This document shows positions 21,001-27,000 of a stretch of DNA of 64,000 bases, piece after piece. The DNA is from a virus (Duplodnaviria > Heunggongvirae > Uroviricota > Caudoviricetes): IMG/VR virus record IMGVR_UViG_642979322_000022; one strand, written 5' to 3'. How positions within the stretch are numbered: position 1 is the stretch's first letter; each line of letters begins with the position of its first letter. The position numbers are program-made.

Positions 21001-24000
21001 GATGGTAGTCTTTCACAGCCACGACCACCACAACGCTGGCAGTCTCTGATAACAGGCATACCACGTTTTACCGACTCTTCACGATGAATGGCGACACCAC
21101 GCCCACGGCAATCCTTACAGGCGGTGGAAACCTCACCCTTTCCGCCACACTCCGGACAGGCAACTTTTACCACCTCCCTGACTTTTTTCCATTCCTCCCA
21201 GTAAGACGGATACACGCCTTTTGTGCACTTTGCCCACACTGGCGGCTTACCATCCGGATACTGGATCTTGTTTGTAAAAACCTCGCTTTCAATAAATTTT
21301 TTTCCGTGACAGCAGGGGCACTGTTTTTTGCTCGCCGCGCTACGGGCATAATCTTCAAACGCATACGAAGCCATAATACGCATCACTGCCGGTTTTATTT
21401 CTGCCGGGAGTTTTCTTAACGCCGCCACGCGATCACACCGACTGAGTGCATATTCTGTCAGCAATTCTGTTGCCCGCTCTCTGTCATTCATACTAATGCC
21501 CATTTTCCCAAGGAACGCAGAAAACCCCATCTCAGCCCGATTCTGTGTCATGCCCTGCGCGGCCATCACATCAGTGATACTCAGCGCATCTTTTGACGTT
21601 GAGGCCGATGCATCGGTCAGGCCAGGGGATTTTGGGGAGTAGTATTTCGGTAAATCTTCCAGTTTCATTTTTTGACCTGCCCTTCAAGCATTATGGGGTA
21701 AATCTTCACCCCCAGACGTCCACCAGATACTGGCTTTCCACGTACAATATTGATTTCATCAAACTGCTCATCGTCCATTAACAACCCCGCGTGCGTCAGC
21801 GCATCCAGCGGTGCTTTCAGAATATTGTCCAGGTCACGGCGGCGCTTATCCGGTGGCTCTGCAATAATTTTTATTGCCAGCCGTCCGGACAGGCTTAATT
21901 TCAGTCGCTGCTGGCGAACAATAAGCGCCACTGCCCGGCGATAACGCTCCCCGGCTTTTGATACAAAATATGTGCTGCCACGGCGTCGCCAGTAAGTGTT
22001 CACCGTCGGCGGGTAAGGTAAAACCAAATCTATGAGCATCAGTCACCTCTTTTACCCAAGCACGCCAGTTGCAAAGGCGTGATCAAGAAAACGAAAAATT
22101 AAATCAACCTGAGAACCATGCTTTTCTTCGAACGCCAGCGGATCCGCATGAAGCTCGTTGTGATGCTCCCGACACAGCGGTAGCGTGAAAATATCGTGAG
22201 ATTTTGTCCCCATTCCGCCCTGACCATGACCAATCAGGTGATGGGGATCGTCGGCTGGCTTACCACAACACGCACACGGCTGTGTCTTTACCCAGCGTGT
22301 GTATTTCTCATTTACCCAGCGGCGACGTTTAGGTCGTTTCATGAACGATTCAGGAGACTCCGGATCAACGGCGATACTGACAACCGTTTTTTTCTGTGGT
22401 GGATTTTGTTGCTGGTGGACGTGAAGTGGCAGCGCAATATTTTTTGTGCGCTGCTTCAGTATGCTGATGGCTGTCTGTTCTCCCGGTACGATGTCACTCT
22501 CACGGTATACGGAGCGGATTTTTTCCGCTGGTAATCCCAGCGAACGACGCGCTACTGCCTCAGGTAGTGCATCCACCACCTGATTGCAGGCCGCCCACCA
22601 GGATAATTCGGCCAGCGATAACTCCCTCTCCTGCGTACCGCTTATTGCGTGACGGATGACATCAATCATCCAGGCAACCAGATTCTGCTGAGCAAGTTGA
22701 TCGAGTGATTCTGATGTCTGGTCGCGCAGCTGGTTGTCGCAGTGCCAGCACAACACCATCGCGCCGGTACCATAACGGTGAATGACTGTTTCGCTGTGAT
22801 GATAATCGCCGTGTGGCCACTGGCAGGATTTCACGTGACGTAATAACCAGTCAGACAGTGCACCTGCACCACCTGCTGCACGAATAACCCGCTCATCGCT
22901 GAAAAATGGCAGTAATGTTTTATCCTCTGCCAGCGGCTGGCGAACGGCAGGAACGACTCCGGACGGCAGACCGCGCATGTTTTTCGGTTCCGGCTCCACC
23001 AATATTCTGCCGTTATGGAATACTGACATTGATTCACGGCCTGGCTTAACGATAACCAGACCGAGTTCCGGTACCAGAACAGGTCGAAGTAATACCCGCA
23101 CGTTACCTCCAGATGCGCTGCTGGAATGTGCGGGACGGACGCGGTGGGCGTTCGGAATAAGGGAGCCTGGCGGAGATTATCCAGTGACGACGATCGAAGC
23201 TGAGATCTTTCTGAAACTCGTAACCACGTCTGCGGTAGCACTGAATCAGCCATTCGGCCTGTTCTTCAGTGCATGGGTCATGCTGGAACCAGTCAGATTT
23301 GAATGCATGAGAACACCGCCCGTGCCTGCTGGCAAAGACGGCTGAATTATCAGAATTGTTAAGTTTCTTGTAATGCACCACTACTATCCTCGTAATGGTG
23401 CGACAGACGCCAGTTGTTCAGGCTGGCTTTACTACAGCATTATAATCTAGTCTCTTTTAATGCTGAAGTAACTGACCGAATCCGCATGCGATTCTTTGCT
23501 GATCAGAATAACATCAGATGGCAATGGCATTACGATAAACTCACCATTCCCAAGAACTATTACTTCATAATTACCTGGTATAGAAAGCGCAGCAATTAAT
23601 TCCTTATCGTTCATAACAAAAATCCCATGAACTATAAACACCTCCCCTTATGGGGGCCATCCCTCTTATCCCTGCGCGCTACTTAAGAGCCTCGATTCTA
23701 GCCGTGAAGACATGCCAATCAACAGCAATAAACCACCTGAATAACAGAATCAGCCAGCCACATCGGTACAACCAGATGCATCACGCTCACCGAAAATAAA
23801 CAACAAAAAACCGCCGAAGCGAGTTAAGTGGGGTGCGTTGAGGATGCCTGACACATCAGAGGTGGCGAGGGATTTCTCCCCCGCCAGGTCTCTTACTCCT
23901 CAGGTTCGTAAGCTGTGAAGACAGCGACCTCCGTCTGGCCGGTTCGGATTCGTACCTCGCAGAGGTCTTTCCTCGTTACCAGTGCCGTCACTATGACGGT

Positions 24001-27000
24001 TAAACAGATGACGATCAGGGCGATTAGCATCGCCTTTTGCTGCTTCATAGCCTGCTTCTCCTTGCCTTTCGGCACGTAAGAGGCTAACCTACGTGTGTAG
24101 AGCATAGATATGGCCTCAGATTAATGTTAAGCGTCTTGCCGGACGCGTAATGTTAACTGGGGCTTTTCTCTATCTGCCGTTGGTGTTCATGCCCGAGGCA
24201 GATAGCCTCAAGCACCCGCAGCAATTCTACTTAACTCTCGCTTTACCGCAAACCGTTTTTACCCGATATGGGAATTCCCATATCGTAATGAATTCAGTTC
24301 CCTAGTCGATCCATCAAAAACACAACCAGGCAGTAAACGCCCACAACAGCAATAACAGCCAGCGCACCTTCCATTGCCAGTGAAATATCATCCGACATAT
24401 TCCCTCCTTTGGTGTGAATCCCGGCGAACGTTTTTACCCCCACCGACAAATAACATATACTAAAAAATCAATAGCTATAGCAACGCCTGTAATTGCAAAG
24501 GCTTCAGGCCAGATCATTGGCGCACCTCCTGCGGCGGTTCTGGTAGCGGCATCCAGTGTGACGGTTTCCACGACGCACCAGGAATTATCCACCCATCATT
24601 AGCGTCAGGATGCCCCGGGATGTAAGTAGCCCATTTCATTCGCCAGTCACCTTTCCTGTCAAACTCCACGGCAACAAGAACGGCTGTTTTGGTATTCGGC
24701 ATTCGCTCACTACAGCTTATCCAACCATCCGGAGTTACCGGAGAATTGCCAGCCTTGCGCATGGCAATCTCCATGATTTCAACCATATCTCCTGGTGGAA
24801 TTTTACAATGCTGACCAATATGCCTCTGCTGCCTGGCATATTCGAGGATGTGCTCCAGCTTGATACGATTAATCATGATTTATCTCCCTGAAGCATGGCT
24901 TCGCGGCAGTCGTTCCAGCCTTCAGCATAATCACTATACGCAAGAGGCCAACCGTTTCTGTATTCACGCGGCAACTTATCAGGCACTACCAGCGCTGGCG
25001 GCGCGGAGAATAGTGGTTTAGGTGATATTTCCGCACGTTTTGCGTATGCTTCAACTGTGTCAGGGTTAAACAGGATTATGTTTTCACCGCATTCCCACGC
25101 TATCGGTTCTGCTTCCAGCGATGCCAGTGCAATTTTGAATAACTCGCCCTCTACCCGTGCCATCCCTGAATTGGGGTAGCATTTCGCAATCGCTATTTTT
25201 AATTTGGCTTCTTCGATTAATTTCTCTTTGGTTAATTCAGTCACTTTTCATTACCGCCCTTTCGGGCGGCCTCCTGACATTAATCGTTGTGATAACTCAT
25301 AGCTTCATTTGCAGCATCAACTGGATCAACATCCCACCAGCAATAATTTGGGTCGACACCTTCAGGTGTCCACGGCTCTAATTCATTTTTTGCCGCATTC
25401 TCGTCGCCAGTAATTTTAAAAATCTGCTCTGAGAACTTTTTCACCCACTCGTTATATTTTTCAGCGTTAATAACTTTCTGTGCGTTTGACATTGATATAC
25501 CTCCGGTTAAGGATTAAATTTTTAACAGAGCTAAATTTAATTATTCAGTTCTGGATTTTGTCACCCTGCGTATCCGCGCTTTCACGTTACGCTCAATCTG
25601 AATTAGCTTTTCTATATTTCTCCGCCTTTCCCGTTCCTCCTGGCGCAAGATCCTTACATCATCTGCCAGTCTGGTTTCTCTTTTCGCCACAGAGAGCATC
25701 CAGTCAAATGGCTCCACAACTGCACCGCAGATTTTACAGCGGACCTGACGCTCTTTTTCGTCAACCCGAACAGAGGCGTGATGACAATATGCTCTTTCCG
25801 ATGGCTCATAAAGAAAATTAACCTGATTACGTGGGTCATCCTCTTTTACCGGAAATAAAACGATATTGCTTAACTCATCTTCTGGTTTTATTTCCATGCT
25901 CTTCTCCTTTGATGTGAATGCCAGCGACAATTGAAGCCTGATAGCTAATTCACTCACAATACCGCCTCCTGAAAATTGCCCTGATAGAACGCCAGTACAC
26001 GCAGCATAACTTCACTCTTCCGGCACTCGCCACAGATTATGTTCTGTTGTCTGTCGTAGCGGCGTATTTCTCCGTCTGGTAACTTTCGAATCAATGTCTG
26101 GTCGGTTGTTTTCTCCGCTGCCTTACGCCATACGCGATACACCTGTTCTGATGTAAAAACACCGTATTTACCGGGCATGTATAAATCGCCGCAAGCCAGT
26201 ACATCCACAAGGCAACGTCTGACTGAATGCCAGCCTGCTCCCGTCGCTCTCTCCAGTTGTGATATCGTCATGCGTTCATTTTTGCGTACCAGCCCGATAA
26301 TTCGGGCCTTCAGTTCTTCACGCTGTTCGTGTGTAAAAGGTTTCGCCATAAGCGCCTCCGGCAATCACTTTTCCGACACAATACGACCGGATGAATCGAC
26401 AATCTGCCGAACAATATCCCGGTGCTTGTTCAGCTCCCGCAGCGCGGCGCAGACACGCTCCCACTTCTGAACCTGACCTTTTGCCCGGCGCAGCTCGCGG
26501 TTAGCCACATGCAGCGATGGTAAAATCAGACCATCCGGATGTTTTCTGGTGAACAACGGCTGTGACTGCACTGTGACCGCCACAGTTTCTGTTTTATTTT
26601 CTTCCTGTGTTGCGGCTTCCCGGACTGGTAACGCAGCACCTGCTGGCTGAGGAAAGGCCTTACCATCACTTTCCGTTACCAGCGCGGCTTTCGGCTCTGC
26701 TGGTAAATTATCGCCCGGCATGCAGTAACGAAATTTACCGTTCTGATTAACGCGTGCCAGCCGCCCCGTTGCGGTTACCACCGCCAGCGTGGAAGCAACC
26801 TTGCGAGTACTGACGCCGAACTTACCCGCCAGTTCCTCACACGTTTTAGCCCCATCCTGACCGATAAACTCAATCATCATGTCTGCGGTAACTTTTTGTT
26901 CGACCTCCCTGGTCAGCATATCCTGTGCTTCAGATTTTACTGGCCGCTCTTCGGTTACCCCGGATTCACCTTCGCCAGCCAGAAACCAGGTGTGACCCGT

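Follow-up and report, generated by a model that had tools for sequence, protein, structure and literature searches.

The closest described relative of the locus studied here is hokW-mokW-sokW of the Sp5/933W prophage, for which function as a working type I toxin-antitoxin has been published on experimental grounds (Takada et al. 2021, PMC8621323); HokW is made on prophage induction and increases phage release about two-fold, and it shares 44% identity with Hok of plasmid R1 (PMC8621323). We analyzed a 64,000-nt stretch of an Escherichia coli lambdoid prophage (the window, to which all coordinates refer) that carries a homologous hok cassette and, upstream of it, two very short open reading frames (ORFs) for hydrophobic peptides, which we term peptide A (34 aa) and ORF B (27 aa). 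The genes of the hok cassette, peptide A and ORF B all lie on the minus strand. Small single-helix proteins of the enterobacterial inner membrane that bind larger membrane proteins, such as AcrZ, MgtS, MgrB and KdpF, provide a second point of reference.

Our analysis indicates that the region probably holds two separate things, namely a canonical hok/mok/sok cassette and, directly upstream of its promoter, two tiny genes for putative single-helix peptides of the inner membrane. Because the 933W/Sp5 homologue has been studied experimentally, the cassette part is already known, and peptide A is already catalogued. A function for peptide A would show an effect of lambdoid prophages on the host membrane in lysogeny or induction.

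The hok/mok/sok cassette of the window

The 51-aa ORF at 23893..24048 (-) had been recognized from the sequence alone as a HokD-type toxin, and database evidence agrees. Its product, MKQQKAMLIALIVICLTVIVTALVTRKDLCEVRIRTGQTEVAVFTAYEPEE, matches the Pfam family HOK_GEF (PF01848) with 82.9 bits (cut-off 22; E=1.2e-23) over profile positions 1-42 of 42, and in RefSeq the gene is hokD and the product is named HokD (WP_000813254.1); matches to the NCBIfam Hok families fall under the curated cut-offs. We therefore refer to the gene as a hok toxin gene of the HokD/HokW type. DNA identical to the hok ORF stretch is present in E. coli O157:H7 and related strains (RefSeq), and in the window the locus occupies a nin-like region, where it is flanked by a DUF551 and a DUF968 gene, as annotated in RefSeq. 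The in-frame mok-like extension, also part of the sequence-only reading, is a 70-aa mok-type ORF that starts at ATG 24105 and shares both the frame and the stop codon of hok (23893..24105, -; ORF list). This arrangement is the same as that of the annotated mokW/hokW of phage 933W, and is the layout expected if mok and hok are translationally coupled.

Rfam family RF01794 ('sok') matches 24217-24043 over its full model length (111.7 bits, gathering threshold 59; E=3.8e-26). Since the match lies on the hok-sense strand and terminates at the hok AUG, it marks the 5' leader of the hok mRNA (24043..24217, -), including the tac element GGUGCUUGAGG (24216-24206), and not the antisense RNA; an annotation based on the name of this Rfam family would assign Sok to the wrong strand. 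The 391-nt hok transcript is predicted to fold with -157.8 kcal/mol (z=-6.7), and tac pairs with the fbi element CCUCAACGCACC (23832..23843, -) in both the minimum free energy (MFE) and the centroid fold. A search for fold-back elements downstream of the peptide, which the sequence-only reading had proposed, thus returned the predicted 5'-3' lock of a hok/sok locus.

The putative hok promoter (24224..24264, -) consists of the right-hand copy of a direct repeat, GGGTAAAAACGGTTTGCGG (24264-24246), whose end forms the -35 element TTGCGG (24251-24246), followed by a 16-nt spacer and the -10 element TAGAAT (24229-24224). A homologous TTGGCG-17-TAGAAT was called as a promoter in phages Tritos and HannyBb by the promoter scan, and we infer that the site in the window is active.

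On the opposite strand, a Sok-type antisense gene (24062..24167, +) was mapped by alignment from the annotated sokW of 933W. It comprises a promoter-like site, TTGCCT-17-TAACCT, at 24062-24090 and a homologue of Sok RNA at about 24097-24167 that spans the mok start codon; in its predicted fold (-28.6 kcal/mol, z=-5.4), the first 15 nt are unpaired, and a long hairpin and a U tail follow. The window thus appears to encode an antisense RNA that has its own promoter and overlaps the mok start, and transcription has been demonstrated for the homologue sokW (PMC8621323). The earlier impression that no sok-like element was present is overturned by this homologue, together with the RF01794 match.

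A terminator-like hairpin and U tract, CTCGCTTCGGCGGTTTTTTG (23804..23823, -), recognized in the alignments, closes the cassette. It is weaker than the family consensus CCCGCTTCGGCGGGTTTTT, and the terminator scan made no call at this position because the stem has fewer than five pairs. The 3' end of the cassette (23804-23831, -) reads CACCC-CACTTAACTCGCTTCGGCGGTTTTTT here compared with CACCCGCACTTAACCCGCTTCGGCGGGTTTTT in the family consensus, with a correspondingly shortened terminator stem, and the altered form is common only to the identical loci L001 and L036.

Together, these data identify the cassette as a canonical type I toxin-antitoxin locus, hok/mok/sok, that has all its parts and belongs to the prophage hokD/hokW type. 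It is 97-99% identical to its counterparts in 933W, Tritos and HannyBb, which carry annotated mokW, hokW and sokW, or HokD, and the alignment with these loci is near-invariant from GTTAAGTAGAAT in the -10 region to past fbi. A stable hok mRNA would start at about 24216 and be locked by pairing of the 5' tac with the 3' fbi; translation of hok would depend on translation of the overlapping mok frame, and Sok RNA (about 24097-24167, +) would cover the mok start and block translation. Loss of Sok would then lead to Hok being made and to damage of the inner membrane, which in the Sp5/933W homologue occurs on prophage induction. For the allele in the window, Hok toxicity and rescue by Sok are expected by analogy with that homologue.

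Two loci outside the window depart from this organization: in L154 (about 1850-1900) the hok leader is intact and the coding sequence is replaced directly after the Shine-Dalgarno (SD) sequence, and L083 has an insertion of about 1.1 kb that separates the start of the leader from hok.

Peptide A is a small protein-coding gene

Peptide A, MSDDISLAMEGALAVIAVVGVYCLVVFLMDRLGN, is encoded at 24294..24398 (-), from an ATG at 24398 to a stop codon that ends at 24294, 246 nt before the hok ATG. The SD sequence AAGGAGGG (24402..24409, -) is located 3 nt before the ATG, in keeping with the strong SD that had been noticed upstream of hok. The sequence-only reading had described an unannotated 37-aa ORF with a single transmembrane segment; the hydrophobic single-helix character holds, but the length is 34 aa, and the ORF is annotated, as a RefSeq coding sequence for a hypothetical protein (WP_001278450.1), as UniRef A0A0J2ETP2, and as entry XECs145 of a published translation catalogue.

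The best 19-aa window of peptide A has a hydropathy of 2.72, and AlphaFold2 (AF2) predicts one helix over residues 2-33 (predicted local distance difference test score, pLDDT, 90.7). We infer from these properties that peptide A inserts into the membrane and acts by helix-helix contact with some membrane component, and a role as a membrane-modulating peptide is a reasonable assumption. Peptide A has no Pfam match at E<=1 and belongs to no PHROG, NCBIfam or PADLOC family; for peptides A and B, matches against Pfam, PHROGs, NCBIfam and PADLOC were at chance level only (SecE E=0.07, Cmr5 E=0.02, unnamed PHROGs E>=0.01). Membership of the Hok/Gef family was considered and rejected, as there is no profile match, no periplasmic C-terminal domain, and only 5 residues follow the helix.

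Evidence for translation of peptide A is published. Ribosome profiling (Ribo-seq) of E. coli O157:H7 Sakai lists the peptide A ORF as the translated ORF XECs145 (Huecker et al. 2017, PLoS One 12:e0184119, PMC5597208). In lysogeny broth (LB), the ORF had 79.1 reads per kilobase per million (RPKM) for RNA and 346.1 RPKM for footprints, a ribosome coverage value (RCV) of 4.35 and a coverage of 0.99; in brain heart infusion (BHI), the respective values were 121.3, 150.1, 1.14 and 0.84, and under stress it was nearly silent (PMC5597208). The catalogue entry is a 162-nt ORF of 54 aa with a non-canonical upstream start (PMC5597208), and its sequence ends in the whole 34-aa peptide A. We favor the 34-aa over the 54-aa form because SD and ATG are conserved, and because of the RefSeq model. 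The 2017 paper contains no functional test of XECs145 and no mention of the hok link (PMC5597208), and a literature search for the peptide A string had no match in main texts and located it in a supplement only.

Comparison of homologous loci revealed at least three diverged lineages, A1, A2 and A3, with 62-71% nucleotide identity between them. All three keep the frame, the stop position, and an SD with a start codon, the sequence upstream of the SD is unrelated, and the peptide A frame is the only one that is open in every lineage. A1 is the form found in the window. A2, (M)LVLKCALAIAAVMAIYCLAVVLMDRLSD, has a GTG start and occurs in phages Tritos, HannyBb, Evi and mEp460, and A3, MLAALKGFVAILAVVAIYCLVVVLMDRLSD, is represented by locus L172; an SD (AGGAGG, AGGAG or TGGAGA) precedes the GTG start in A2 and A3.

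The pattern of substitution points in the same direction. The nine A1 and eight A2 DNA alleles collected show 26 polymorphic events, 16 of which affect the third codon position (binomial p=0.003). Within A1, the window and L006 differ by 5 synonymous and 2 non-synonymous changes, corresponding to a ratio of non-synonymous to synonymous change (pN/pS) of 0.14, with 0:5 and 1:6 for the other frames; both of these contain stops and yield higher ratios. The overall range of pN/pS for peptide A is 0.14-0.54. Between lineages, dN/dS separates the frames weakly because the sequences are short, and the comparisons within a lineage and with loci that lack hok are clearer. Of the 13 differences between the hok-less lineage and the A2 form of Tritos, 9 are synonymous and 4 non-synonymous (pN/pS 0.16), and 9 fall at codon position 3 (p=0.009), indicating that peptide A is under selection without hok. 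Frameshifted or truncated alleles (P0026, P0028-P0030) are rare; four of the five damaged-allele clusters have a single member (P0026 has three), and each is found on one or two contigs.

Together, the conserved SD and start codon, the open frame, the synonymous excess and the published translation signal identify peptide A as a genuine small protein-coding gene. Translation and conservation were the two properties by which the sequence-only reading had proposed to judge the peptide, and both are present, in the form of the Ribo-seq signal and of a frame that is open in three lineages with signs of purifying selection.

By all searches made, the family appears narrow and limited to prophages of Escherichia and Shigella. 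A word-indexed search of 5.8 billion proteins, with the 51-aa extended ORF of peptide A as the query, returned 30 clusters, for which all named sources are E. coli and all names are 'hypothetical' or missing. Against 1.84 billion cluster representatives, a profile search gave 14 proteins, all of this family except P0058, a repetitive 105-aa protein that matches weakly and lies outside it. With one genome per species, 185,579 species yielded five loci, in Escherichia ruysiae, in Shigella flexneri, and on three short contigs of metagenome-assembled genomes that resemble enterobacterial prophage DNA. Within E. coli, a 296-bp stretch spanning ORF B and peptide A is present in 737 of 5,426 complete genomes, at a median of three places per genome, and the genomes with peptide A are mostly Shiga-toxin-type strains.

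Linkage between peptide A and hok

We examined the association of the two elements from both sides. Among 78 viral-contig loci found through an identical HokD, peptide A is present in 22 and absent from 56. Some of the hok loci without it have unrelated left flanks that start at the hok -35/-10, and in some, all that is left is the last codons of A2 (ATGGATCACCTTTCTGATTGA) or GAACTGA plus the palindrome described below, with junctions that cut the ORF. The flanks to the right of hok occur with A1, with A2 or with no peptide, in all combinations. Conversely, an intact A2-type ORF is found without hok in S. flexneri (L089) and at 12 metagenomic loci. On hok-less contigs of 300 kb, the peptide ORF has a queH-like gene on one side and a DUF1971 gene on the other, and in hok-less loci homology to the hok-bearing loci ends about 16 nt after the peptide stop codon. 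Moreover, loci that share about 97-99% identity in the hok cassette share about 65% in peptide A, indicating that the two have different histories.

Starting from peptide A, the association is conspicuous. All 75 of the A1 loci with enough sequence have a hok leader about 180 nt downstream, hok follows in 56 of the 68 informative metagenomic A2 loci, and it also follows in the single A3 locus.

We conclude that peptide A behaves as an independently assorting accessory, possibly moron-like gene, which is a frequent neighbor of hok; the free assortment of the two argues that it lies outside the toxin-antitoxin. Of the features associated with morons, the gene is clearly present in some related loci and absent from others, and in the window it has direct-repeat flanks; a promoter of its own is seen in A2 but was not found in the window, and no terminator follows peptide A.

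Two observations concern the surroundings of peptide A in other loci. In several phages, and likewise in the chromosomal lineage that lacks hok, the position of peptide A and hok is immediately preceded by a queH-like gene (epoxyqueuosine reductase, DUF208-type; L004 500-1186, L013, L021, L057, L071, and L174/L176/L178 220-888). In addition, a conserved stretch of about 200 nt precedes the A2 peptide in L003 (about 1310-1515), with homologues in L007, L022, L026, L046, L066, L068 and L087-L089. It has a sharp left boundary around TCGCTCAAAGCGGACTAGAAGG that abuts at least eight unrelated left flanks, and the stretch, peptide A2 and hok/sok look as if they move as one block; no Rfam match and no conserved ORF were found in it.

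ORF B, direct repeats and the palindrome

ORF B encodes the 27-aa hydrophobic peptide MIWPEAFAITGVAIAIDFLVYVICRWG (24434..24517, -). Its start overlaps the stop codon of the upstream neighbor (ATGA), a 120-aa DUF551-domain gene at 24514..24876 (-) that is annotated in RefSeq and matches Pfam DUF551 with E=6.3e-22, and this overlap indicates that ORF B is translationally coupled to the DUF551 gene. The homologue in 933W is MTWPEAFANVGTVMAVVLVVYSICRWR, and ORF B is found in more contexts than peptide A, including many hok-bearing prophages. Across 19 alleles, pN/pS is 0.31-0.41 in frame versus 0.6-1.65 in the other frames, a pattern of the coding type; an in-frame 6-nt deletion occurs in L005/L006, and some alleles have premature stops. 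The RefSeq record examined has no coding sequence for ORF B and there are few 'hypothetical protein' records, so its near-absence from RefSeq constitutes an annotation gap. In some strains, small indels in the intervening sequence join ORF B and peptide A into a single 74-aa ORF with two hydrophobic segments (P0005 and P0009).

The left-hand copy of the direct repeat, GGGTAAAAACGTTCGCCGG (24421..24439, -), is a degenerate copy of the sequence upstream of and including the hok -35, so that the window holds two copies, at 24439-24421 and, as GGGTAAAAACGGTTTGCGG, at 24264-24246. They share the exact 11-mer GGGTAAAAACG at 24429-24439 and 24254-24264, as found by exact string search; the general repeat scan did not report this 11-nt direct repeat. 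Between the repeats lie 156 nt with the SD, peptide A and a 22-bp palindrome. In 933W-type loci, the ORF B stop runs directly into the sequence upstream of the hok promoter, GATAAAAACGGTTTGCGG, with a single repeat copy and no peptide A. Compared with 933W, the peptide-A cassette therefore differs by an insertion or deletion between short direct repeats, which suggests that peptide A may be gained or lost by recombination between them.

The palindrome, CGATATGGGAATTCCCATATCG (24264..24285), is perfect, lies between the peptide A stop and the hok promoter, and occurs once in the window (repeat scan). A 61-nt RNA including its hairpin (24240-24300) is predicted to fold with -18.6 kcal/mol (z=-3.7), and its variants covary too little for an RNA structure to be assessed. 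It is kept beside hok in L024, L028, L035 and L085, where peptide A is reduced to its final two codons plus stop (GGTGAACTGA). A role as a classical intrinsic terminator was rejected, since neither strand has a T-run after it.

In A2 loci, a promoter of the form TTGAAT/TTGAAG-17-CATATT is conserved across the Tritos-like, HannyBb-like and hok-less L174-like alleles while its spacer diverges, and no terminator was found between this peptide promoter and hok. In the window, peptide A is presumably read from the early (nin-region) operon that includes the DUF551 gene. It would then use its own strong ribosome-binding site, and ORF B would be coupled to the DUF551 gene.

As Sok is common in the flanks of the prophage small RNA PasA, we also considered whether the peptide region corresponds to PasA, and rejected this: PasA is reported within 10 kb of the holin/lysozyme operon, and 24225-24520 contains no Rfam family. 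Elsewhere in the window, two prophage small RNAs match at the Rfam gathering level, STnc100 at 18934-19134 (-; 148 bits) and DicF at 31332-31383 (+; 75 bits), and the 64,000 nt contain no tRNA genes.

Alternative readings of peptide A

Several points weigh against peptide A being an independent, translated membrane-peptide gene. The recurrence of three diverged lineages directly upstream of a near-identical hok is not fully explained by synteny, and could mean that peptide A is a functional Hok partner, kept adjacent because it tunes insertion, oligomerization or toxicity of Hok or gives partial immunity. In A1, A2 and A3 alike, the peptide immediately precedes the hok promoter, its stop being 0-50 nt away from the -35, the counts of hok downstream of A1 and A2 are high, co-transcription may occur in A2 through the lack of a terminator, and both Hok and peptide A would be inner-membrane helices. 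We nevertheless consider a partnership unlikely, as loss of the peptide is tolerated in the 56 identical-HokD loci without it, some of which still hold its last codons, and as intact peptide A persists without hok under an excess of synonymous over non-synonymous change relative to the hok-linked allele. The hokW-sokW of 933W/Sp5 is functional without peptide A, and the disparity in identity between cassette and peptide speaks for different histories. The broader proposal that the peptide A family, perhaps with ORF B, comprises unrecognized membrane partners of prophage Hok that tune or delay its attack on the inner membrane is quite unlikely; if it were true, some prophage hok/sok loci would be three-component systems. 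A second small toxin, as envisaged in the sequence-only reading, would make peptide A the membrane toxin of another type I pair with an unrecognized antisense RNA. It is short, very hydrophobic and single-helical, as type I toxins generally are, it adjoins another type I system in a prophage, and a weak promoter-like match at 24374-24401 (+) is antisense to its 5' end. This match agrees at 9 of 12 positions, in a scan that gave 3 such sites against a shuffle mean of 1.1; the common A8V allele alters its -35 from TTGCCA to TTACCA, and A2 loci showed no conserved antisense promoter or terminator, so that the search for an antisense RNA yielded a single plus-strand match that is not conserved among alleles. 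Furthermore, no Rfam family matches the peptide A region and no toxin or defense family matches the peptide, its net charge of -3 (A1) or 0 (A2) comes without the basic flank usual in type I toxins, and the 35 nt (24433-24399) between the ORF B stop and the peptide A ATG leave no long structured 5' untranslated region in the window. Given also its high RCV during growth in LB, which would be surprising for a toxin without repression and argues weakly against strong toxicity, we regard a toxin as highly improbable.

The remaining doubts concern whether the ORF is a functional protein gene at all, or is kept by DNA or RNA elements, for instance sequence upstream of a promoter or a hairpin, or by recent spread, with footprints that are noise. 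Most A1 copies are 97-100% identical, which indicates recent spread, and damaged alleles exist. Between lineages pN/pS is moderate (0.38-0.54), and one alternative frame gives a similar ratio once stop codons are dropped. Many ORFs of the 2017 Ribo-seq catalogue are unvalidated; the call itself spans the 162-nt ORF with its other, upstream start, several identical copies of peptide A in Sakai mean that reads map to more than one place, and RCV-type evidence leaves non-ribosomal sources of footprints partly possible. The footprints came from uninduced cultures, with spontaneous induction as a possible source. The promoter scan found no peptide A promoter in the window, and the membrane-modulating role is deduced from size and hydrophobicity. 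Set against the absence of a protein function, however, are the third-position bias in two comparisons (p=0.003 and p=0.009) in the sole frame open in all lineages, the conservation of SD and start codon across three lineages that otherwise have nothing in common upstream, the RCV of 4.35 at 0.99 coverage, and the rarity of damaged alleles, which together make a non-coding explanation distinctly improbable. We therefore retain the reading of peptide A as an independent small gene, one more very short, translated and selected membrane-protein gene filed as 'hypothetical protein'.

Comparison with known systems

The cassette corresponds most closely to hokW-mokW-sokW of 933W/Sp5, with which it has in common the mok/hok overlap, the position of Sok, tac and fbi, almost all aligned columns from the promoter to fbi being invariant; the 933W/Sp5 locus, too, resides in a lambdoid prophage, in O157-type strains of E. 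coli. The two differ at the Hok C-terminus, which reads ...FTAYEPEE here (the HokD allele) and ...FVDYESEK in 933W, and in their surroundings. Peptide A and the palindrome lie between ORF B and the hok promoter in the window, whereas 933W has only ORF B there, and the 933W locus is near the end of the genome record with other neighbors, in contrast to the position between the DUF551 and DUF968 genes. With hok/sok of plasmid R1, the cassette shares the family PF01848 and, as predicted from sequence and folding, the fold-back of tac onto fbi, the coupling of hok translation to mok, and a Sok whose 5' tail is single-stranded. The hokD (relF) gene of the K-12 Qin prophage belongs to the same family and its product bears the same name, HokD, as that of the window; the K-12 copy, which we take to lie downstream of relBE and to lack the regulatory leader, would thus differ from the complete copy described here.

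For peptide A, the nearest parallels are AcrZ, MgtS, MgrB and KdpF. It is unlike them in having no sequence link to curated families and in being prophage-borne and found in Escherichia and Shigella only, and it is like them in its size of about 30 aa, its single hydrophobic helix and its short polar ends.

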